From Escherichia coli (GTDB lineage Bacteria; Pseudomonadota; Gammaproteobacteria; Enterobacterales; Enterobacteriaceae), in the NCBI RefSeq assembly GCF_003790525.1, contig NZ_CP033633.1: a stretch of DNA of 64,000 nucleotides. One strand, 5' to 3'. A program made the translations under genes and the position numbers. Shown here piece after piece: positions 1,601 through 61,366 of the stretch (position 1 is its first letter; every line of letters starts with the position of its first letter). Under the pieces are notes generated by a model. That model ran no database searches. It saw nothing but the letters and a program-made list of their open reading frames with translations, and had not been told where the DNA came from.

Positions 1601-4600
1601 ATGAATAAGAATATACGAATTTTACAATTTCTGGTCAGTATACTTTATTCTGTGCAGTCTCATTTTTCTAGTGCGCAAACAATACAACTGAATGGTAATG
1701 GTATACCTGAAAGTATAACCAGGAGTATTACAGGTGTTGATGGAAACGCGGCGCTTAATATCAGCGTGCCGTATAAAACAAGTTATACTCAAAATATACT
1801 ATCTGTTGAAAGCAGTATTAACATCAAAGGAGGAACAAGCAATACATCAATCGGTGGTGCAGGTGTCTACGGTGAAAACTTTACGCTAAATAATAATGGT
1901 AGTGTTTGGGGAGGAGATGGATATAATGGTGGAATTGCTGTTAGTGGCAACAAAATATCTATAAACAATTACAGAAATGTATATGGGGGTAATGGTCTTG
2001 GTGGCTCAGGAAGTAGCGGAGGTGCAGGGTTAAGCGGGGATGATATTATAGTTGATAATTACAGAAGTATATACGGAGGTGATGATGTAGGTGGGACAGG
2101 TGGTTCCGGTGTAACCGGTAGCAATATTACAGTGCATAATTCCGGAGGAATATTGGGCGGTAATGGCGTAAACGGTGGTGATGGTATTAATGGTAGTAAT
2201 CTTTTCATTACTAACGACAACATGATATCTGGAGGATATGGAATAAAACAAGGGGGAGATGCTATTTCTGGAAATCAAATCACTTTGAATAATAACGGTA
2301 TTGTTCAGGGGGGATATGGCCCCGACGGTGGTTGCTCTGTTTATGGAGAAGATATCCATATTAATAATCATGGTAATCTTTCAGGATTATATAATAGCCA
2401 AAAAGATGCTTATAATACATCAATAATTTTTTCTGGCGGGTATAATTCATTAGATATTTATTCAGATTCTGTGATTAATGGTGATATTAAACTAGCTAGT
2501 ATACCTGTTAATGGTACAAATGAATTAATTATTAAGAACATCAATAACGCAACAGCAATTAATGGTGGGCTAATGATTGGGAATGGCTCATCTGTTTATC
2601 TGTCAGGCAAGAACTCCATTTTTAACGGAAATATAAGTATTGATGAAGACGCATCTATGAACCTGTCTGTAGGAAATGCTAATGTTCACGCAAATACTAT
2701 TACATTAAAAAGTGATTCATGGCTTAATATAGACACATCAATTAAGAACTGGACTCAGGACTATTACACATTATTGTCGTCAGACACAGGTATCTCGATC
2801 GCTGATAATAGTCACATTGTACAATACAATGTATTACTGACAGAAGGTGCTGAAAGTTATGTTTATACGTCTTTAAATGACGACGATAACAAACTGATAT
2901 CCATGCTGAGATGGAATAATACAAAAGGGATGGGATATGGAACCTTTAATATAGAAAAAGATGCCACTCTGAACATAGGCGTTTCTCTTTCCGATAATCT
3001 TTCACCTTTATTATATGATGGCTGGGACGGCAAAAGTCTGACAAAATCAGGTAATGGTACTCTTATACTTTCTGCAACAAACAATTATACAGGAAATACA
3101 GAGGTTAAATCTGGCGTATTAATTCTTGCTGCACCTGATGCTCTTGGTCGGACTGAGTATTTATATTTATCCCGTGGCGCAGAACTGGATATGAATGGGT
3201 ATCCTCAGACAATAAGCAAACTACTGACGGCTGCAGGCTCTGTGCTGAACATTCATGGCGGAAGTCTGATACTGAATAATGGAGGAGAATCTGCAGGTAC
3301 TATTGCAGGGGATGGTTCTCTGAACATAAATGGGGGAATGCTTGATATAACGGGTAATAATCGTAATTTTTCCGGTGTTTTTACCGTGAATAAGGGGGCT
3401 CATTTGGCTGTATCCACGGCTGATAATCTGGGGACAGCCTTTGTTGATAACTATGGCACATTAACTCTGAACAGTACATCAGCATGGCAGCTTACCAACA
3501 ATATCAGTGGTTATGGTAATGTTCGCAAGACGGGAGCAGGTGCACTGAACATTAGCGATAACGCAAAATGGAGCGGGATGACAGATATTATTCAGGGGAC
3601 AGTGATACTGGGGAACGCAGATTCACCGGTGATGCTCGGCAGTAACCAGGTCATTGTTGAAGAGCAGGGCAAACTCTCCGGGTTTGGGGGCGTTGCAGGA
3701 AATCTGAGCAATAGTGGTATAGTCGATCTCACTACATATATGCCGGGTAATATACTGACTGTCGGAGGGAATTACACTGGCAGAAATGGACTTATTCTCC
3801 TCCAGACAGAAACAGGTGGTGACAATTCGAAAACAGATCGTCTGGTGATTAAAGGTAATGCCAGTGGCCGTACCCGTGTCGCTGTTACTCAGGCCGGTGG
3901 TTCTGGTGCAGAGACACTTAATGGGATTGAAGTGATTCACGTCAGTGGCAATGCTGATAATGCTGAATTCATTCAGACGGAACGTATTACAGCCGGAGCT
4001 TATGATTACATACTGAAACGTGGTCAGGGGATTAACAGCACTAACTGGTATCTGATTAGCAGAAAAGACATTCCTGTACCACAACCTGAAGCTGTACCGG
4101 AAAACCATGATAATAATTTGCGTCCTGAGGCAGGTAGCTATGTTGCCAGTATTGCTGCTGCAAATAATCTGTTTGTAACGAATCTGTATGAACGACAGGG
4201 ACAGGAGTTGTATATCAGCCACATGACAGGAGAAGAAAATGAAGCAGGTATCTGGATGTATAATAAAGGAAAACATAATCGCTGGCGTGACAACAGTAGT
4301 CAGCTGAGAACCCGGGGGAATAGCTACGTTGTGTTAATAGGGGGAGATATAGCTCAGTGGAGCCTGAATGGTACCGATCGCTGGCATACAGGTATGATGG
4401 CTGGCTATGGTCATAATAATAACAGTACGAATGCCCTGAGCACCGGATACCATTCGGAAGGAAGAATGAATGGATACACAGCGGGTCTTTATGCAACATG
4501 GTATGCCAATGATGAAACACACAATGGTTCTTATCTTGATAGCTGGCTGCAATACAGCTGGTTTGATAATCATATAAATGGAGAACGGCTGCCTGCTGAG

Positions 4601-5098
4601 TCATGGAAGTCAAAAGGGTTTACGGTATCTCTGGAAGCAGGATATTCATGGAAGGCTGGAGAGTTTACCGACAATTACAAGGGAAGTCATGAATGGTATG
4701 TTCAGCCGCAGCTTCAGGTTGTCCGGATGAATGTAAAATCAGACAAATATCATGAAAGTAACGGAACCAGTATTGAAAATACCGGTAACGGAAATATTCT
4801 CACCCGCCTGGGAGCAAGAACATGGCTTACCAGCAAAAACGGTAAAAATACGCGGTATGCGGTTCCGTTCAGACCATTTGTGGAGGCACACTGGTTGCAC
4901 AATAGTCGTGTTTTCGGCACCAGTATGAATGGTGTAAGTATATACCAGGATGGTGCGCGTGATATCGGAGAAATAAATGGTGGTGTTGTGGGAATGATAA
5001 CACCAGAAGTAGCATTCCGGGCTGATGCAGGCATTCAACTTGGAGAACATGGATACCATAATACATCTGCCATGTTGAGTGTGGAATATCGTTTCTGA
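1601..5098 (+). CDS. type Va autotransporter (adhesin-like): signal peptide, Gly-rich beta-helix passenger, C-terminal beta-barrel
   Basis: 1165-aa ORF; hydrophobic N-terminal leader; repeated GGNG/GGDG motifs; C-terminal ~280 aa with alternating aromatic pattern ending VEYRF; AT-rich relative to neighbours. Confidence 0.8.
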   Translation: MNKNIRILQFLVSILYSVQSHFSSAQTIQLNGNGIPESITRSITGVDGNAALNISVPYKTSYTQNILSVESSINIKGGTSNTSIGGAGVYGENFTLNNNGSVWGGDGYNGGIAVSGNKISINNYRNVYGGNGLGGSGSSGGAGLSGDDIIVDNYRSIYGGDDVGGTGGSGVTGSNITVHNSGGILGGNGVNGGDGINGSNLFITNDNMISGGYGIKQGGDAISGNQITLNNNGIVQGGYGPDGGCSVYGEDIHINNHGNLSGLYNSQKDAYNTSIIFSGGYNSLDIYSDSVINGDIKLASIPVNGTNELIIKNINNATAINGGLMIGNGSSVYLSGKNSIFNGNISIDEDASMNLSVGNANVHANTITLKSDSWLNIDTSIKNWTQDYYTLLSSDTGISIADNSHIVQYNVLLTEGAESYVYTSLNDDDNKLISMLRWNNTKGMGYGTFNIEKDATLNIGVSLSDNLSPLLYDGWDGKSLTKSGNGTLILSATNNYTGNTEVKSGVLILAAPDALGRTEYLYLSRGAELDMNGYPQTISKLLTAAGSVLNIHGGSLILNNGGESAGTIAGDGSLNINGGMLDITGNNRNFSGVFTVNKGAHLAVSTADNLGTAFVDNYGTLTLNSTSAWQLTNNISGYGNVRKTGAGALNISDNAKWSGMTDIIQGTVILGNADSPVMLGSNQVIVEEQGKLSGFGGVAGNLSNSGIVDLTTYMPGNILTVGGNYTGRNGLILLQTETGGDNSKTDRLVIKGNASGRTRVAVTQAGGSGAETLNGIEVIHVSGNADNAEFIQTERITAGAYDYILKRGQGINSTNWYLISRKDIPVPQPEAVPENHDNNLRPEAGSYVASIAAANNLFVTNLYERQGQELYISHMTGEENEAGIWMYNKGKHNRWRDNSSQLRTRGNSYVVLIGGDIAQWSLNGTDRWHTGMMAGYGHNNNSTNALSTGYHSEGRMNGYTAGLYATWYANDETHNGSYLDSWLQYSWFDNHINGERLPAESWKSKGFTVSLEAGYSWKAGEFTDNYKGSHEWYVQPQLQVVRMNVKSDKYHESNGTSIENTGNGNILTRLGARTWLTSKNGKNTRYAVPFRPFVEAHWLHNSRVFGTSMNGVSIYQDGARDIGEINGGVVGMITPEVAFRADAGIQLGEHGYHNTSAMLSVEYRF

Positions 5099-21331: not shown

Positions 21332-22195
21332 TTATTGTTCAGTTAACTTCATTTCGACAAGTAAAGGTAAATGATCTGAGACAGATGCATATGGCTTACT
21401 TTCAGGGGTCGCTCTATCTGACGGTTTAGGAATATATACATCTTTAATGTCCCATTTTTGAGCATTTGATGTAAGTATATAATCAATTTTCCTGTCTGGA
21501 TTCCATGATGGTGCCGTGTACTTCAATTCCTTATCAGTGTCATTGAACCATGCTGTTAAATCCAAGTACTCTGTTGATTGAGGTGGTAAATTAAGATCAC
21601 CCACTATAATTGGAAGTGCATTTTTAAACTGCCAAGAAGAGAATTCTGTTTGAAGAGTTCTTACTTGCTCTGCTCGTAATGGCTGCGTAGTGAAGTCCAA
21701 ATGAGTAGTTACTAACATAACAGGCGCAGGATAATTAGGGACATCAACTTCTACAGCACAGGCCGCTCTTTGCTCCGCACCTTTGATGTTAGGTAGTTCC
21801 ATCCTTTTACTCAATTTCAAATCATACTTAGACAGTACTGCTGTACCATATTCCCCACCATCATGATCTATAGCCTTGCAGAAGTAATAATTCATTCCCA
21901 ACTTATTAGCTATATACTCTGCTTGATTGACTGGGTTAGAACCCTCTTTACTAAAGTTCTTACCAGAACGCCCAGTCATGTTATCAACTTCTTGCAGTCC
22001 AATAATATCAACATTCATTTTACGAATTGCTTCTACAATGGCATCAGTACTCCCCATTCTAGAGGCCATTATGTTATATGACCCAACACGAATACTATCG
22101 GTATCTGCTGGACCATCCATGAGGCGATCAGAAGCTAAAGTTGAAGAGGAAAGAACTATAAACCCTATAACCGCAGCAATGCTTGTTAATTTCAT
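21332..22195 (-). CDS. secreted endonuclease/exonuclease/phosphatase (EEP, DNase I-like fold) family protein
   Basis: Signal peptide MKLTSIAAVIGFIVLSSSTLA; ...DIIGLQEV... near N-terminus and ...SDHLPLLVEM... near C-terminus; AT-rich. Confidence 0.65.
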   Translation of the reverse strand: MKLTSIAAVIGFIVLSSSTLASDRLMDGPADTDSIRVGSYNIMASRMGSTDAIVEAIRKMNVDIIGLQEVDNMTGRSGKNFSKEGSNPVNQAEYIANKLGMNYYFCKAIDHDGGEYGTAVLSKYDLKLSKRMELPNIKGAEQRAACAVEVDVPNYPAPVMLVTTHLDFTTQPLRAEQVRTLQTEFSSWQFKNALPIIVGDLNLPPQSTEYLDLTAWFNDTDKELKYTAPSWNPDRKIDYILTSNAQKWDIKDVYIPKPSDRATPESKPYASVSDHLPLLVEMKLTEQ

Positions 22196-22376
22196 TTTTA
22201 CACCTTGTTATTTTTGATAGTAAATTTACATATCAAAATAAATCATAAAATCGCTTTTTTTAGTGATAAAAACCTCAAAAACAAAAACAATTAGTGATCA
22301 ACATCTCATAAGTAGTACATTTATCAACCGTTCCATTAATGTTTCATTCTATCGCGAATTAGGTAATGACTCCAAC

Positions 22377-22880
22377 TTATTGATAGTGTTTTATGTTCAG
22401 ATAATGCCCGATGACTTTGTCATGCAGCTCCACCGATTTTGAGAACGACAGCGACTTCCGTCCCAGCCGTGCCAGGTGCTGCCTCAGATTCAGGTTATGC
22501 CGCTCAATTCGCTGCGTATATCGCTTGCTGATTACGTGCAGCTTTCCCTTCAGGCGGGATTCATACAGCGGCCAGCCATCCGTCATCCATATCACCACGT
22601 CAAAGGGTGACAGCAGGCTCATAAGACGCCCCAGCGTCGCCATCGTGCGTTCACCGAATACGTGCGCAACAACCGTCTTCCGGAGCCTGTCATACGCGTA
22701 AAACAGCCAGCGCTGGCGCGATTTAGCCCCGACATAGCTCCACTGTTCGTCCATTTCCGCGCAGACGATGACGTCACTGCCCGGCTGTATGCGCGAGGTT
22801 ACCGACTGCGGCCTGAGTTTTTTAAGTGACGTAAAATCGTGTTGAGGACAACGCCCATAATGCGGGCTGTTGCCCGGCAT
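22377..22880 (-). CDS. insB: IS1 InsB
   Basis: Near-identical to 20359-20862. Confidence 0.85.
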
Positions 22881-23074
22881 CCAACGCCATTCATGGCCAT
22901 ATCAATGATTTTCTGGTGCGTACCGGGTTGAGAAGCGGTGTAAGTGAACTGCAGTTGCCATGTTTTACGGCAGTGAGAGCAGAGATAGCGCTGATGTCCG
23001 GCGGTGCTTTTGCCGTTACGCACCACCCCGTCAGTAGCTGAACAGGAGGGACAGCTGATAGAAACAGAAGCCAC
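22799..23074 (-). CDS. insA: IS1 InsA
   Basis: Near-identical to 20165-20440. Confidence 0.9.
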
Positions 23075-23304
23075 TGGAGCACCTCAAAAACACCATCATA
23101 CACTAAATCAGTAAGTTGGCAGCATCACCCAGGGGGCCAGTCTAGCAGATTATGGTGCGCAGTTATACAACAGCAGTAATGAGGAGTCTACTATTTCTCT
23201 TGTTATGCCAGATGCAATTGAATGGAACGGAAAGAATACGCCAAGACGGCAATACATGATAAAATATATTGCCGTATTTAAATATTAAAATTTATTTTTG
23301 TAGA

Positions 23305-30915: not shown

Positions 30916-31725
30916 ATGTCAGGCTCCGTTATACACAGCCAGTCTGCAGCCATGGTACCGGCAGTGTATTCTGCCGGACAGTCTGCACAACTTCCTGTTG
31001 CCATTGATTATCCGGCAGCTCTGGCACTCCGCCAGATGTCGATGGTTCATGATGAACTGCCGAAATATCTGCTGGCTCCCGAGGTGAGTGCCCTGCTTCA
31101 TTATGTCCCGGATCTGCGCCGCAAGATGCTGCTGGCCACTCTGTGGAACACCGGCGCGCGTATTAATGAAGCACTAGCGCTGACGCGGGGGGATTTTTCG
31201 CTCACGCCTCCGTATCCGTTTGTGCAGCTGGCCACTCTGAAGCAGCGGACAGAAAAAGCCGCCAGGAGGGCAGGAAGGATGCCCGCCGGTCAGCAGACTC
31301 ACCGTCTGGTTCCGCTCTCCGACGCCTGGTACGTCAGCCAGCTGCAGACGATGGTGGCCACACTGAAAATCCCCATGGAACGGCGTAATAAACGAACAGG
31401 CAGGACAGAGAAAGCGCGGATCTGGGAAGTGACGGACAGAACGGTCAGGACCTGGATTGGGGAGGCGGTTGCCGCCGCTGCTGCTGACGGTGTGACGTTC
31501 TCTGTTCCGGTCACACCACATACGTTCCGCCATTCCTATGCGATGCACATGCTGTATGCCGGTATACCGCTGAAAGTTCTGCAAAGCCTGATGGGACATA
31601 AGTCCATCAGTTCAACGGAAGTCTACACGAAGGTTTTTGCGCTGGATGTGGCTGCCCGGCACCGGGTGCAGTTTGCGATGCCTGAGTCCGATGCGGTCAC
31701 AATGCTGAAAAACAGACATGTATAA
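30916..31725 (+). CDS. resD: ResD tyrosine site-specific recombinase (multimer resolvase)
   Basis: 269-aa ORF directly after ccdB as in F; C-terminal HxxR...Y catalytic region (HTFRHSYAMHMLYAG...STEVYTKV). Confidence 0.8.
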   Translation: MSGSVIHSQSAAMVPAVYSAGQSAQLPVAIDYPAALALRQMSMVHDELPKYLLAPEVSALLHYVPDLRRKMLLATLWNTGARINEALALTRGDFSLTPPYPFVQLATLKQRTEKAARRAGRMPAGQQTHRLVPLSDAWYVSQLQTMVATLKIPMERRNKRTGRTEKARIWEVTDRTVRTWIGEAVAAAAADGVTFSVPVTPHTFRHSYAMHMLYAGIPLKVLQSLMGHKSISSTEVYTKVFALDVAARHRVQFAMPESDAVTMLKNRHV

Positions 31726-31862
31726 TAAGTCACAATTATGAATTGTGATTTCTTCTATAAAAAAGAGACCACTGCAATATGTGATCTCTTGTATTATTTC
31801 ATAATTGGGTGATGCTGCCAACTTACTGATTTAGTGTATGATGGTGTTTTTGAGGTGCTCCA

Positions 31863-32138
31863 GTGGCTTCTGTTTCTATCAGCTGTCCCTCCTGTTCAGC
31901 TACTGACGGGGTGGTGCGTAACGGCAAAAGCACCGCCGGACATCAGCGCTATCTCTGCTCTCACTGCCGTAAAACATGGCAACTGCAGTTCACTTACACC
32001 GCTTCTCAACCCGGTACGCACCAGAAAATCATTGATATGGCCATGAATGGCGTTGGATGCCGGGCAACCGCCCGCATTATGGGCGTTGGCCTCAACACGA
32101 TTTTCCGCCATTTAAAAAACTCAGGCCGCAGTCGGTAA
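31863..32138 (+). CDS. insA: IS1 InsA
   Basis: Near-identical to other insA copies. Confidence 0.9.
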
Positions 32139-32560
32139 CCTCGCGCATACAGCCGGGCAGTGACGTCATCGTCTGTGCGGAAATGGACGAACAGTGGGGC
32201 TATGTCGGGGCTAAATCGCGCCAGCGCTGGCTGTTTTACGCGTATGACAGGCTCCGGAAGACGGTTGTTGCGCACGTATTCGGTGAACGCACGATGGCGA
32301 CGCTGGGGCGTCTTATGAGCCTGCTGTCACCCTTTGACGTGGTGATATGGATGACGGATGGCTGGCCGCTGTATGAATCCCGCCTGAAGGGAAAGCTGCA
32401 CGTAATCAGCAAGCGATATACGCAGCGAATTGAGCGGCATAACCTGAATCTGAGGCAGCACCTGGCACGGCTGGGACGGAAGTCGCTGTCGTTCTCAAAA
32501 TCGGTGGAGCTGCATGACAAAGTCATCGGGCATTATCTGAACATAAAACACTATCAATAA
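32057..32560 (+). CDS. insB: IS1 InsB
   Basis: Near-identical to other insB copies. Confidence 0.85.
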
Positions 32561-32570
32561 GTTGGAGTCA

Positions 32571-33482
32571 TTACCAACTATTACTGTCCAGAATCTCCAC
32601 GGCTGAAATATATAGCGGAGAAACTCCACTGCCTTCAGGAAAACGGACAATGACATCATGATTATTACTGGACATCGTATAACCAGCCTCAACATAATTC
32701 CCTGTCTCAGAAATAACGCCATCTTCCTGGATTTCGGGATTAGACCGAACTGGAGTATTCATCTGACCCACACTTAATACCAGGTCCGGTAGATTTGGTG
32801 ATACAGGGGCACTGTAAACATCTTTAATATTGGTTCCCGGACGACTCCGGTCCGGAACTGGAACGGCATCCACTACTGGCACTGTCATCGGAATACCTCC
32901 GATAATAGCCATATATTGTGTACCATTCTGCATAAGGTCCGTCAGACGATATTTTACCGGTACATTATTACCCGCTGCTGGTAACTGGCTGGCAGGGATA
33001 TCCGTTACCTGCTCCAGTTGCTGTGTAACCATAAGACGAATAATTTTTTGCTCATTTCCGGAAGCAGGCTCCAGACGGGCAAAAGAAACAGCAGCCGGGC
33101 GAGACGGTTCTGGCAAACCACCACGTAAACCATTTTCAAGAACTGTTCGTGCAGCGGAAACTTTCTCGTTTCCCCAGGGGCTATGCACACTGACAGACCA
33201 TCCCGACCAGTCTCCCTCTTCAAGTTCCTTATCAAGAATAATCCGGCGAATAATTCCAGGAAAAAGAACACTTTGTACAAGTGCGATACCTTGTGGGCTG
33301 TAATCCCCCCATCCCGGAGGCATGGATGGAGCGAGACCTGATGAGCCTCCGGGTTTCACATCACCGCCCGGAATTCGTCCTGTTGACGGCCACACAACCA
33401 TTGTGTCCCCGTAATCAATACCTTCTGTCGGTACACTACCTTCATTATCACTCATAGAAAACCTCTTTGACTTTAAAAACAA
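32571..33482 (-). pseudogene. unknown Gly/Pro-rich protein, C-terminus cut by IS1 (stop codon supplied by the IS1 end)
   Basis: 303-aa ORF MSDNEGSVPTEGIDYGDTMVVWPSTGRIPGGDVKPGG...; reading frame runs into the IS1 terminus. Confidence 0.4.
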
Positions 33483-33669
33483 TCAATTAAAATTAAATAC
33501 TGTACATATAACCACTGGTTTTATGTACAGATCAAAAATTACGCCGCTGTGTTTTCTCTGTCAAGACTGTGGATTTCAATTTTTGTGAAAACGATCAAAA
33601 AACAGGCACTCACACCACGTGCTATTCTCGCCTGATACCACAAAAAACTGCACAAGCATTACTGGTCAG

Positions 33670-34129
33670 GACGGCAGGAAGAATGCCCGCCGGCCAGCAG
33701 ACTCACCGGCTGGTTCCGCTCTCGGACTCCTGGTACGTCAGCCAGCTGCAGACGATAGTGGCCACACTGAAAATCCCCATGGAACGGCGTAATAAACGAA
33801 CAGGCAGGACAGAGAAAGCGCGGATCTGGGAAGTGACGGACAGAACGGTCAGTACCTGGATTGGGGAAGCGGTTGCCGCCGCTGCCGCTGATGGTGTGAC
33901 GTTCTCTGCCCCGGTCACGCCACATACGTTCCGCCATTCCTATACGATGCACATGCTGTATGCCGGTATACCGCTGAAGGTCCTGCAGAGCCTGATGGGG
34001 CATAAGTCCATCAGCTCAACGGAAGTCTACACGAAGGTGTTTGCGCTGGATGTGGCTGCCCGGCACCGGGTGCAGTTTTCGATGCCTGAGTCCGATGCGG
34101 TCACAATGCTGAAAAACAGACACGCATAA
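33670..34129 (+). pseudogene. partial second copy of resD (3' ~60%), diverged
   Basis: Translation TAGRMPAGQQTHRLVPLSD...HTFRHSYTMHMLYAG... collinear with resD residues ~115-269. Confidence 0.7.
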
Positions 34130-34265
34130 TTCATAAATCATAATTATGAATTGTGATTTATTCTGTAAAAAAGAGACCACTGCAATATGTGATCTCTTGT
34201 ATGCAAGGGGGCTTAAACAGTATGAATTCACAAGTGTGATTTCATAAGTAATAACTTTTTGATTA

Positions 34266-36780: not shown

Positions 36781-38052
36781 TCAGAATGAAGCAATGGGGA
36801 TCTCAGTCCATTGTGTTGTATACGAAGGCGAGAGCATTTCCCGTTTCATTTGCCATTCAGGGGCGGTTCCTCGCCCCGCAAACCACACTTTCCCTTTTCC
36901 CGACTGGTTCAGTTCATCGAGTGTTTTCATTAACTTTTCACTGTTTTTACGGGGCTGGATTTCATCAAATAATCCCGGCTGCGCTATACCCGATGGTGTG
37001 AAATCAGCCAGCATGACTCCTGCCTTCATATAGCGGTACCCTTCACGCCAGACATGGTTTAAGGCTCTGCATGCGGCGGCAATAATGTCCCGGCTGTCCT
37101 GTGTGGGCAATGGAAGCTTTTCCACAGCGGCATTGCTGTAACAGGGTTCTTTTACTGCAAAGGGGGATGTCCGTACAAATGTCGTCACCTGCCGGCAATA
37201 CTGACGCTCCCCACGTAGTTTCTCTGCGGCCCGCTCTGCATACTGAACAACAGCCTGGTGCATGGCATCTTTGTCTGTGATTCGTTCACCAAAACTGCGA
37301 CTACAGACAATCTGCTGTTTTGCCGGTGGTGCTTCTTCCAGGGATATGCAGGACTCGCCGTTGAGTTCGCGTACCGTACGCTCAAGAATGACGCTGAAGT
37401 TTTTCCGGATGAATGCCGTGTTAGCCTGCGCCAGCTGCAGTGCTGTGTTAATACCCAGCGCATTCAGCTTTTCCGTCAGTCTGCGTCCTACTCCCCAGAC
37501 CTCACCAACTGGCTGCAGTCCCAGTAGCTTCAAGATCCGATTACGGTTTTCTGCCGTCAGCGCGACCACACCGGAAAACTGTGGCCATTGCTTTGTTGCC
37601 CACTGTGCACTTTTAGCCAGCGTTTTTGTAGGCGCAATGCCCACCCCCATGGTGAGTCCTGTCCAGCTCTTTACCTGTTCCCTGAGCTGATGACCAAAAA
37701 ACTCCGGAGAGATGCAATGATTTATCCCCCGCAAATCAATAAACATTTCATCAATTGAGTAGGGCTCAACTGCGGGAGAAAGCGACTCCAGAACAGCCAT
37801 GACCCGTTGGCTCATGCTGTGGTACAGCGCATAATTGCTGGAAAATACATGTATTTTCTTCTCCAGGCGCATCTGTCTCACCTGAAACCAGGGCTGCCCC
37901 ATTCTGATGCCAAGGGCTTTTGCCTCCGGGCTGCGCGCGATCACACAGCCATCGTTATTGCTGAGTACGATGACCGGTTCGTTGCGAAGGTCCGGGCGGA
38001 AAACTTTTTCACATGAGGCGTAGAAACTGTTGATATCAGCCAGTGCAAACAT
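36781..38052 (-). CDS. Y-family DNA polymerase V catalytic subunit (UmuC/MucB/ImpB-like)
   Basis: 423 aa; MFALADINSFYASCEKVFRPDLRNEPVIVLSNNDGCVIARS... N-terminus. Confidence 0.85.
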   Translation of the reverse strand: MFALADINSFYASCEKVFRPDLRNEPVIVLSNNDGCVIARSPEAKALGIRMGQPWFQVRQMRLEKKIHVFSSNYALYHSMSQRVMAVLESLSPAVEPYSIDEMFIDLRGINHCISPEFFGHQLREQVKSWTGLTMGVGIAPTKTLAKSAQWATKQWPQFSGVVALTAENRNRILKLLGLQPVGEVWGVGRRLTEKLNALGINTALQLAQANTAFIRKNFSVILERTVRELNGESCISLEEAPPAKQQIVCSRSFGERITDKDAMHQAVVQYAERAAEKLRGERQYCRQVTTFVRTSPFAVKEPCYSNAAVEKLPLPTQDSRDIIAAACRALNHVWREGYRYMKAGVMLADFTPSGIAQPGLFDEIQPRKNSEKLMKTLDELNQSGKGKVWFAGRGTAPEWQMKREMLSPSYTTQWTEIPIASF

Positions 38053-38489
38053 CAGCGTAACTCCCGCGTCCTGTGTATCACGTGAGTGACAACACCAAAA
38101 ATACAGATGTTTTCCGGATACAGTGTGCGGAACTCCGGGCTGTCTGAAACCGGCTCCAGTGCCGGGCGTGGGCGCAACAGCAGTCGTTTGACGGTGAACT
38201 CACCGTCGATCTCAGCGATAACGATGTCCCCGTGTTGTGGTTTTTCGGCCCTGTCCACTACCAGCAGATCACCATTCTGCACGCCAGCCTGGTTCATCGA
38301 TTCACCGCTGGCGCGCAGAAAGAAGGTGGCTGCAGGTCTGCTGATGCAATAGCTGTTCAGATCCAGTTCCTGCTCAGCATAATCAGTGGCAGGCGAAGGA
38401 AAACCGGCCTGGCAACGATCGGCAAACAACGGTCGCACGTAACTGTCATCGCCTGAAGGGTCAGCCGGACGGTGATAAACGGTACTCAT
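38052..38489 (-). CDS. UmuD/MucA/ImpA-like self-cleaving accessory subunit
   Basis: 145 aa; ...ASGESMNQAGVQNGDLLVVDRA...GDIVIAEIDGEFTVKRL (Ser/Lys peptidase fold). Confidence 0.8.
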   Translation of the reverse strand: MSTVYHRPADPSGDDSYVRPLFADRCQAGFPSPATDYAEQELDLNSYCISRPAATFFLRASGESMNQAGVQNGDLLVVDRAEKPQHGDIVIAEIDGEFTVKRLLLRPRPALEPVSDSPEFRTLYPENICIFGVVTHVIHRTRELR

Positions 38490-38734
38490 GCTGCAGGCAG
38501 CCAGCTGTCGTCCTGCCAGATTTCTTCCAGCAGAGACAGGATACGTTCTTTATCCTTGTCGTTGCGGGCTCCTGTGACAGATACAGACGGGGCGCTGCCC
38601 TGGTCTATACGCAGCCAGATTTCCGGGTAGTGTGGTTTCAGACGTTGTTCGATTTCATTCTGTAGCGCCTGAAGTGTGCCTGATTTGAGGTTTTTTGTGC
38701 TCTGGCGGTCGAAAAGAATTTCAATGCGGATCAT
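38486..38734 (-). CDS. DinI-family protein (ImpC-like) heading the umuDC-like operon
   Basis: 82-aa ORF from internal ATG (MIRIEILFDRQ...ILSLLEEIWQDDSWLPAA), DinI-like acidic C-terminus. Confidence 0.6.
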   Translation of the reverse strand: MIRIEILFDRQSTKNLKSGTLQALQNEIEQRLKPHYPEIWLRIDQGSAPSVSVTGARNDKDKERILSLLEEIWQDDSWLPAA

Positions 38735-39127
38735 GTTCTCATCTCCCTTTTCTCTTGCTGTATGTATATACAGTATTCTAATAACTGAATCCACACACAG
38801 TCAAATGTCATTATTGTGACTAAAAAACGCTCAATTCTCTGAGGGTGTGGCTGTATGCCTGCTGTGGAGTGCTGTGTCCAGCTTATCCACAGCATTTTGT
38901 GCACGGTTCTGTGGACAAAATACCTGGTTACCCAGGCCGTGCCGGCACGTTAACCGGGCTGCATCCGATGCAAGTATGTCGCTGTCGCCGGCCTCCTCAC
39001 CCGGTCACGTTTCGTCGTTCCTCCTCCACGCGCTGCGGCTTCGGGGCCGCACCTGCATTCGTATGCGGTCGCCCGGTAACAGGTGCGGCACGGCCTGATG
39101 GAGGCCGCATGTGAGAGGAGAATTCCC

Positions 39128-57321: not shown

Positions 57322-57375
57322 TGAACCGCCCCGGAAATCCTGGAGACTAAACTTCCTGAGAAAGATGTAAACAGG

Positions 57376-57702
57376 ATGACTAAAAATACTCGTTTTTCCC
57401 CCGAAGTCCGTCAACGGGCAGTTCGTATGGTTCTGGAAAGCCAGGGCGAATATGACTCACAATGGGCGGCAATTTGTTCCATTGCTCCAAAGATTGGCTG
57501 TACGCCAGAGACCCTGCGTGTCTGGGTTCGCCAGCATGAGCGGGATACCGGGGGCGGTGATGGTGGGCTCACCACCGCTGAACGTCAGCGTCTGAAAGAG
57601 CTGGAACGCGAAAATCGTGAACTGCGCCGCAGTAACGATATCCTTCGCCAGGCTTCCGCTTATTTTGCGAAGGCGGAGTTCGACCGCCTCTGGAAAAAAT
57701 AA
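57376..57702 (+). CDS. IS629 transposase OrfA (variant)
   Basis: 108 aa, one substitution relative to copies 1 and 2. Confidence 0.8.
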
Positions 57703-58095
57703 TGCCACTGCTGGATAAGCTGCGTGAGCTGCAGTGAGCTGCATATTGCCCCGTCAACGTATTACCACTGTCAGCAACAGCAGCATCATCCTGATAAACG
57801 CAGCGCCCGTGCGCAGCGTGATGACTGGCTGAAGAAAGAGATACAGCGCGTATACGATGAAAATCACCAGGTGTACGGTGTGCGTAAAGTCTGGCGTCAG
57901 TTGTTACGGGAAGGTATCAGAGTGGCCAGATGCACTGTGACACGTCTTATGGCGGTTATGGGTTTTGCCGATGTTCTCCGGGGTAAAAGGTCCGCATTAC
58001 CGTCAGCCGGAAAGCCGTTGCCGCAGGCGACCGCGTAAACCGTCATTTCGTGGCAGAACGTCCTGACCAGCTGTGGGTGGCTGATTTTACTTACG

Positions 58096-60835
<2,740 letters not shown>

Positions 60836-61366
60836 TGAGTTAACAGACAAAACATTCTCCAGGAAACCCGGGGCGGTTCATATCGCCAGAAAAGCTTTCA
60901 CAACGCCTGTGAGCATATCCAGAACAAAAACGAAAAAATCCTTGTTCGTTCTTAAAAATCGCGTTAGAACTCCTTTGAGCGTGTTCTGCGACTGTGTCTT
61001 GTGTTGGCATGCGTAAACGGGAGCCGCAGTTCGCGCTCACCCTCCCATCTGTATTTCACCTGACGACACGGTTCTTCGTTACGTTCCTTCGGTGAGTGAG
61101 TGCCTGTGCGTCAGGGTAACGCAAAGTGTTCAGGTTTTGCGGGGTGTCAAGTCGGTTAGACTAACCGACCGCAGAATTAACTATACCTCTGAAGGTCTCC
61201 CCCGATATATCTGCCTGTCAGATATGTCGCCGATTCGGCATATCACTACATTAAACTCCTTAAAAAACAATGATGCTATGTTGACTGACGGTTTTTCGGA
61301 AGTCTGACCGGAGAGACGTCAGTACGAAACAGAATGAAGTTGAAAAAACGATCACGTCAGGTCACT

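Follow-up and report, generated by a model that had tools for sequence, protein, structure and literature searches.

The open reading frame (ORF) at 32571..33482 on the minus strand of the 64,000-nt stretch of Escherichia coli DNA analysed here (the window) is almost certainly an IS1-truncated pseudogene of the colicin B gene cba, in a replicon from which the rest of the ColBM module has been secondarily lost. The gene belonged to a ColBM module, and the replicon that carried it is a large plasmid of E. coli from the pE16-3 lineage, which is associated with birds. When the 294-aa product was searched against all PDB chain sequences, residues 1-293 aligned with residues 1-293 of colicin B (1RH1) at 293/293 identities (E=2.6e-193), by which a chance match is excluded by far. 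At the nucleotide level, no differences were found over 880 nt (880/880) in comparison with the intact cba gene of pSTEC1024_2, the remnant covering 57% of the gene at 100% identity. The Pfam family Cloacin (PF03515) extends across residues 1-293 (E=3.9e-100), accompanied by a weak Pyocin_S match, and a TonB box, D17-T-M-V-V21 (DTMVV, residues 17-21), is present; the concept of a pentapeptide TonB box is said to go back to Schramm et al. in 1987. An NCBIfam scan of the fragment returned no family, the curated colicin B model presumably needing the full protein. In an earlier note made from the letters alone, the ORF had been left unassigned, which does not hold, as any database search identifies colicin B and the exact truncated protein has already been deposited. 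The speculation in the same note that its composition resembled a bacteriocin translocation region was nevertheless correct, the region being the translocation/receptor-binding lobe of colicin B with the TonB box DTMVV. The further idea of a secreted effector with a novel domain was rejected.

The length of 303 aa is that of a mechanical frame, which does exist in the six-frame ORF list and opens with the TTG 33482. Nine codons inside this TTG lies the true start, ATG 33455..33453, where the sequence MSDNEGSVPTEG... (MSDNEGS...) begins. The product is therefore 294 aa long and not 303, because this ATG aligns with residue 1 of crystallised colicin B and is preceded at 6 nt by a Shine-Dalgarno sequence. 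Two properties of the N-terminus given in the earlier note were reproduced, namely its Gly/Pro-rich character (33% G+P in residues 1-60 vs 17% in residues 61-294, by composition count) and its lack of a signal peptide, since it reads as an acidic segment with no hydrophobic core. At the other end, the fusion ORF closes with ...AVEILDSNS-W-stop, Trp294 being encoded by a TGG split T|GG. The claim that the last codons and the stop derive from IS1 was thus right for the GG of codon 294 and the TAA stop, but wrong as to 'last codons', since just two bases of the final codon are involved. Truncation by IS1 itself was confirmed by full-length homologues of 511 aa (loci L001 and L003) and by sibling plasmids that keep the other half of the gene beyond the same IS1. 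None of the full-length homologues ends at the same point or belongs to a housekeeping family, and the C-terminus lost from the window could be read from them as 218 residues, corresponding to 1RH1 294-511.

The region upstream of the remnant was also found to be in place (Table 1). It keeps the dual LexA boxes of cba and, with them, a predicted SOS-regulated promoter. The -35 hexamer of the putative promoter is perfect, and its -10 hexamer matches at three of six positions; a promoter/terminator consensus scanner applied to 33300-33700 called nothing, in keeping with this 3/6 match. [quoted passage not shown] A further LexA box, the near-consensus TACTGTATATACATACAGCA at 38756-38775 (-), lies 5' of an operon (38734..36781, -) of dinI-like, umuD and Y-family polymerase genes, and this umuDC-like box at 38756 is the single match to the strict 20-mer SOS consensus in the window.

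Table 1. Coordinates of the cba remnant, its upstream signals and the adjoining elements in the window.
Feature	Position	Strand	Basis
Putative sigma-70 promoter: -35 TTGACA 33564..33559, 17-nt spacer, weak -10 TAATTT 33541..33536	33536..33564	-	reading by eye, inferred
Two overlapping LexA (SOS) boxes, CTGTACATAAAACCAG and GTGGTTATATGTACAG, with one base in common	33500..33530	-	sequence reading
Shine-Dalgarno AAAGAGG, 6 nt 5' of ATG 33455	33462..33468	-	sequence reading
cba 5' remnant, codons 1-293 and first base of codon 294	32576..33455	-	1RH1, PF03515, pSTEC1024_2 DNA match
Parts of the remnant: disordered Gly/Pro-rich N-terminus, TonB box, N-terminal receptor-binding/translocation lobe	32576..33455	-	
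End of fusion ORF from IS1 right inverted repeat: GG completes codon 294, then TAA	32571..32575	-	sequence reading and IS1 boundary mapping
IS1, 768 bp, both terminal inverted repeats, insA/insB'	31808..32575	+	boundary mapping
Deletion junction; cmi, cma, cbi and 3' 218 codons of cba gone (2,760 bp vs pE16-3)	31807..31808	.	blastn vs pE16-3 and AR_0085 loci
5'-truncated second copy of integrase gene 3' end, right border of former ColBM module	33667..34202	+	94% identical to 31263-31794

Comparison with related loci allowed the ancestral state to be reconstructed. In the intact loci (L001, L003), the order is ccdA-ccdB-int-cmi-cma(-)-cbi-cba(-)-int remnant-parA-like-parM, with a cba of 511 aa. 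The window is collinear with and 99.9% identical to pE16-3 (NZ_CP119729.1, from a chicken E. coli), in which, as in the AR_0085 plasmid (NZ_CP029742.1), cba is interrupted at the identical base by the same 768-bp IS1, with 3' cba, cbi, cma and cmi beyond it. In silico excision of IS1 and of one copy of the target duplication from pE16-3 yielded an uninterrupted 511-aa colicin B, and the 218 residues missing from the window matched colicins A, S4, N, Ia and E1 as well as the pore-forming Pfam family Colicin (PF01024). By blastn, the sole difference between the window and pE16-3 in the ColBM region is the absence of 2,760 bp directly to the left of IS1, whose left end now adjoins a position 82 bp past the stop of the resD-like integrase gene. 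The deleted DNA segment gave no blastn match elsewhere in the 64-kb window, and Cmi, Cma, Cbi and the colicin B C-terminus gave none anywhere in it. In particular, cbi (convergent with and downstream of cba) was not found in the window by blastn or tblastn and is present in L001, L003 and L007, and the PF01024 domain is absent from both the ORF and the whole window and present across IS1 in the siblings. Because the pore-forming domain is missing from ORF and window alike, the ORF is, as judged from its sequence, a fragment of a colicin B family member and would not be a functional colicin.

The borders of the former module are marked by a 536-bp direct repeat (31263-31794 and 33667-34202, 94%), consisting of the 3' end of a resD-like tyrosine recombinase gene and downstream sequence, so that int is complete at the left border and 5'-truncated at the right one; in sibling plasmids, the truncated copy is annotated by PGAP as 'tyrosine-type recombinase/integrase, incomplete'. 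This repeat suggests that the module may have entered by recombination between two related backbones, and it also constitutes a substrate for complete module loss. Apart from the ColBM deletion, the window departs structurally from pE16-3 only in the placement of one segment, comprising a group II intron (ltrA) and IS3-family sequence, which is absent at window position ~6977 and found inverted at 57322-60880 (97% identity to pE16-3 75252-78831).

The element at cba was then delimited to the base, the right end of IS1 falling at 32575 and cba sequence starting at 32576. Its terminal repeats, for which imperfect inverted repeats of ~23 bp are expected, read GGTGATGCTGCCAACTTACTGAT at 31808 and GGTAATGACTCCAACTTATTGAT (-) at 32575, and it encodes InsA (31863..32138, 91 aa) and InsB' (32057..32560, 167 aa); in the sibling plasmids, it is annotated by PGAP as 'IS1-like ... 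programmed frameshift'. A 9-bp target-site duplication does not flank the cba IS1 of the window (left TCATAATTG, right AACTATTAC), whereas AACTATTAC is duplicated on both sides of the element in pE16-3 and the AR_0085 plasmid. The missing duplication is a signature of secondary deletion. The element also differs from nine other copies compared (both remaining copies of the window and the cba copies of six relatives) in having C262, C298, C301 and T304 in place of A262, A298, T301 and C304. These four substitutions, clustered within 43 bp, represent the IS1B state, and the nearest database elements are IS1B copies with 1 mismatch, at position 369, where the window has T like the cba IS1 of the siblings. 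A search of 5,426 complete E. coli genomes, with about 75,000 IS1 matches, yielded no identical element. The picture is therefore that of a chimera, probably IS1B-type in its left 304 bp and IS1A-type at 369, the right half being called from one diagnostic site that is itself polymorphic among IS1 copies.

Loss of the module took two steps, as the comparison shows. IS1 inserted after cba codon 293, essentially where the lobe appears to give way to the linker helix, and duplicated AACTATTAC, a state that pE16-3, the AR_0085 plasmid and others still retain. In the lineage of this replicon, the stretch of 2,760 bp from the left end of IS1 to the int-cmi spacer was subsequently lost, removing the pore-forming domain, cbi, cma and cmi together with the left copy of the target duplication. 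Two routes are known by which IS-adjacent DNA is deleted and the target duplication erased, namely adjacent deletion by the transposase and recombination of two IS copies with each other (PMC11708052). The second is somewhat favoured here, with homologous recombination proposed between the resident IS1 and a second copy, of IS1B type, which would have sat in the int-cmi spacer in the same orientation before recombining with it. It is considered the most likely route because the surviving IS1 has IS1B bases in its left 304 bp and an IS1A-type base at 369, and there is a precedent in the same plasmid family, a contig (L017) in which the flank of the IS1 at window position 20110 is joined to cba and the element carries A29 of that copy. 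It is only moderately ahead, however, because the right-hand assignment depends on one polymorphic site and because adjacent deletion plus gene conversion needs an equal number of events. That competing route, in which the resident IS1 moved into the int-cmi spacer by intramolecular replicative transposition, causing a classical adjacent deletion, and a separate gene conversion introduced the IS1B-type patch, is a serious possibility, though thought rather less probable than its negation. Graded left-end deletions on the same right junction, with an essentially unchanged IS1, occur in pEF5-18-41_2, pF1022-2, L018 and L019, a pattern of adjacent deletions growing over time (PMC11708052), and the left flank is AT-rich, as tends to hold for IS1 targets; yet adjacent deletion copies the resident IS1, so that four clustered IS1B-type substitutions within 43 bp need a second event. 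It is also very improbable that there was no deletion at all and that the int|IS1 junction arose as a mis-join across an IS1 copy, the real replicon keeping a complete, IS1-interrupted ColBM module. The window does contain three IS1 copies, and the exact left junction (int +82 bp | IS1) has no contiguous match in PLSDB plasmids, complete E. coli genomes or 10 further contigs, being known from this assembly alone. Both flanks nevertheless follow pE16-3 collinearly, ordered and oriented as expected, the deleted segment is missing from 64 kb of surrounding sequence, comparable genuine deletions are known in finished plasmids, and the chimeric IS1 is a biological rather than an assembler signature. 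If recombination between IS1 copies is the correct reading, the chimeric element would indicate that such recombination contributes to module loss alongside adjacent deletion.

The exact IS1|cba junction was found in 13 PLSDB plasmids and, among complete E. coli genomes, in 17 records, these being chiefly of poultry origin, and at least 201 public contigs encode the exact 294-aa product. Across this family, the right junction is constant and the left flank of IS1 variable. The flank is the original 3' cba, as after simple insertion, in L007, L002, L014, L015, L020 and L022; it lies inside cbi in pEF5-18-41_2, inside cma in L018 and at the int 3' end in pF1022-2 and L019, and the int-cmi spacer is found in this position in the window only. 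In L017 (a contig of GCA_961210005.1), the flank is the left flank of the IS1 at window 20110, an MFS/ABC iron-transport cluster, and this state would amount to an IS1 x IS1 deletion of ~11.7 kb. Unrelated DNA adjoins IS1 in L016 and L021, in which the flanking genes are partly chromosomal-looking (tilS-like, dbpA-like, phage integrase), suggesting possible cointegration or integration events. Erosion is also seen on the cba side, as 204 bp have been lost there in pNDM_M25631H (L011, NZ_CP123060.1, 5538-6212), leaving 225 codons labelled 'cda: colicin-D' by PGAP. In a separate lineage with an independent IS1 insertion (L005; pCTXM14_005215 and many IncF plasmids of E. coli and Klebsiella), 197 codons remain, and many other 'partial' lengths of cba are on record. 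As read from these sequences, a family with one constant junction and many opposite ones shows stepwise, IS1-driven erosion of a bacteriocin module.

Further features were observed elsewhere on the plasmid. Adjoining the IS1 at 20110, the segment 19937-20109 (-) encodes the C-terminal ~57 residues of an immunity protein of the colicin-E/pyocin-S DNase type, its N-terminus cut by the IS1; the relic is annotated in pE16-3 by PGAP as 'bacteriocin immunity protein, incomplete', and NCBIfam gave no match to this short fragment. The same IS1 (20110-20877, +) forms an inverted pair with another (22362-23129, -), and the 1.5 kb between them carry a gene of the endonuclease/exonuclease/phosphatase family with a signal peptide and weak ExoIII-like matches (21332..22195, -) as well as a resolvase HTH fragment, so that the arrangement at 20110-23129 looks like a composite transposon. 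At 1601-5098 (+), a gene was found for a 1,165-aa AIDA-I/MisL-like autotransporter adhesin, with a match to the beta-barrel model TIGR01414 (E=2.7e-96) and scores below the cut-off of every named equivalog.

In the intact system, LexA leaves the dual SOS boxes upon DNA damage, which allows colicin B to be made. The N-terminal lobe of the toxin attaches to FepA, the enterobactin receptor of a competing cell, the TonB box engages TonB for import, and the C-terminal ten-helix domain forms a depolarising pore in the inner membrane, against which the producer is protected by Cbi. The coding capacity of the remnant is restricted to the N-terminal lobe, with the regulatory region intact and the pore domain, cbi, cma and cmi gone. 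We infer that the locus is a pseudogene. At most, it would give rise to an SOS-inducible, non-toxic fragment of 32 kDa (294 aa) that may still bind FepA, and the host would no longer produce colicins B and M or have plasmid-borne immunity to them. No FepA/TonB-dependent killing is predicted, because the pore domain is missing. As to the position of the break, the 1RH1 paper reportedly describes an N-terminal lobe of roughly 290 residues followed by a 74-Å helix, and single-sequence AlphaFold2 modelling of the reconstructed 511 aa, which was poor (mean pLDDT 41, N-terminal 298 residues below 50), placed a long helix from ~291. The IS1 break therefore appears to fall at the lobe/helix domain boundary, mainly on the strength of this reported 1RH1 description, with the poor model agreeing as a weak hint. 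Since other lineages break cba at different points, coincidence rather than selection is argued to account for this position.

It was also considered whether the fragment might be something other than a colicin B pseudogene. A descent from colicin D (cda) or another nuclease/tRNase bacteriocin would agree with the title of PF03515 ('Colicin-like bacteriocin tRNase domain') and with the PGAP label 'cda: colicin-D' on the shorter sibling remnant, and the N-terminal ~310 residues are common to colicins B and D. This origin is, however, hardly conceivable, as in siblings sharing this very insertion the pore-forming 3' half and cbi lie straight across IS1, and their reconstruction is exactly colicin B. 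Weaker PDB matches, to colicins E7 (88-232), E9 (149-293) and E3 (153-292), are likewise confined to N-terminal translocation regions and do not involve the nuclease domains. A C-terminal nuclease/tRNase domain is absent, the ORF stopping at residue 294, and the half that was lost was pore-forming; the 'tRNase domain' label of PGAP and Pfam is a misnomer for the translocation/receptor region.

A different proposal is that the remnant has been retained as a functional, SOS-induced lobe which, through FepA binding and its TonB box, blocks FepA and thereby protects kin from colicins B and D after the loss of immunity or disturbs the enterobactin uptake of competitors. This is regarded as most unlikely, even though promoter, LexA boxes, Shine-Dalgarno sequence and all 293 codons are intact and identical to those of functional colicin B, the break lies near a domain boundary, and the exact allele is widespread. 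Fusions of colicin B to GFP, moreover, serve as FepA labels, so that colicin B is usable non-toxically as a FepA-binding probe (PMC12927319). Perfect conservation is, however, equally expected after a recent event, and the spread of the allele is explained by hitch-hiking on a successful plasmid. Other lineages cut cba elsewhere and therefore preserve no particular fragment, colicin B has no lysis gene, and release of a fragment is hypothetical. Even less credence is given to the related idea that the widespread 294-aa allele has been domesticated as an SOS-induced 'decoy', a stable, non-toxic FepA-binding lobe, which was entertained because the break falls almost exactly at the lobe/helix boundary with promoter and SOS boxes intact. 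If true, occupation of FepA would shield kin without cbi from colicins B and D or starve competitors of enterobactin. Another potential role for the remnant would be to contribute its translocation/receptor domain, as a ready-made cassette, to recombination with different killing domains.

For the pseudogene reading, the significance lies in little beyond correct annotation. The plasmid should be scored neither as a producer of colicins B and M nor as immune to them, despite a strong 'cba' match in gene-presence screens. Automatic names such as 'colicin-like bacteriocin tRNase domain-containing protein', 'colicin-D' and 'hypothetical protein' are misleading; the 294-aa product itself is public as 'colicin-B', 'hypothetical protein' and 'Pyosin/cloacin translocation domain-containing protein', and the same 5' fragment of cba also appears as 'colicin-B, partial', the name varying with length and pipeline.

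Set against known systems, the remnant is identical over residues 1-293 to colicin B (cba; 1RH1; intact on pSTEC1024_2, CP061266.1, and on NZ_JCATZU010000002.1), and it shares with intact cba loci the Shine-Dalgarno sequence, the dual LexA boxes, the TonB box DTMVV and the place between the int remnant and the ColBM module. It differs in lacking residues 294-511, i.e. the linker helix and pore-forming domain, as well as cbi, and can neither kill nor protect. The FepA/TonB-dependent N-terminal region is also shared with colicin D (cda), which, however, has a tRNase domain and its own immunity gene, whereas the lost half in the window was, according to the siblings, a pore-forming domain followed by cbi. 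The closest relatives are pE16-3, the AR_0085 plasmid and some 15 other complete plasmids of E. coli, for the most part from poultry, which have the same IS1|cba junction to the base, the same 294-aa product and a 99.9% identical backbone. Plasmids of the pE16-3 type keep the 9-bp duplication, 3' cba, cbi, cma, cmi and an IS1A-type element, in contrast to the loss of 2,760 bp and the chimeric IS1B/IS1A element in the window.

For colicin BM plasmids, truncation of cba was reported by Christenson & Gordon 2009 (Microbiology 155:1645), according to the summary in PMC6795089. In that summary, as in the window, colicin B activity is lost by cba truncation tied to recombination with other plasmid modules; the truncation there adjoins a remnant of the microcin V operon and colicin M is typically kept, whereas in the window it adjoins IS1, and colicin M and its immunity have also been lost. 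IncF plasmids of the pCTXM14_005215 type (NZ_CP092974.1, many E. coli and Klebsiella) are similar in that IS1 adjoins a 5' cba remnant, with its other end near int-cmi, among the same backbone neighbours, but unlike the window they have the shorter remnant, a left end inside cmi and a backbone allele of ~97% identity. The remnant is thus already known, as part of a named, crystallised protein whose truncated allele has been deposited hundreds of times and whose loss from BM plasmids is in the literature, and just the left deletion endpoint and the chimeric IS1 are private to the window.
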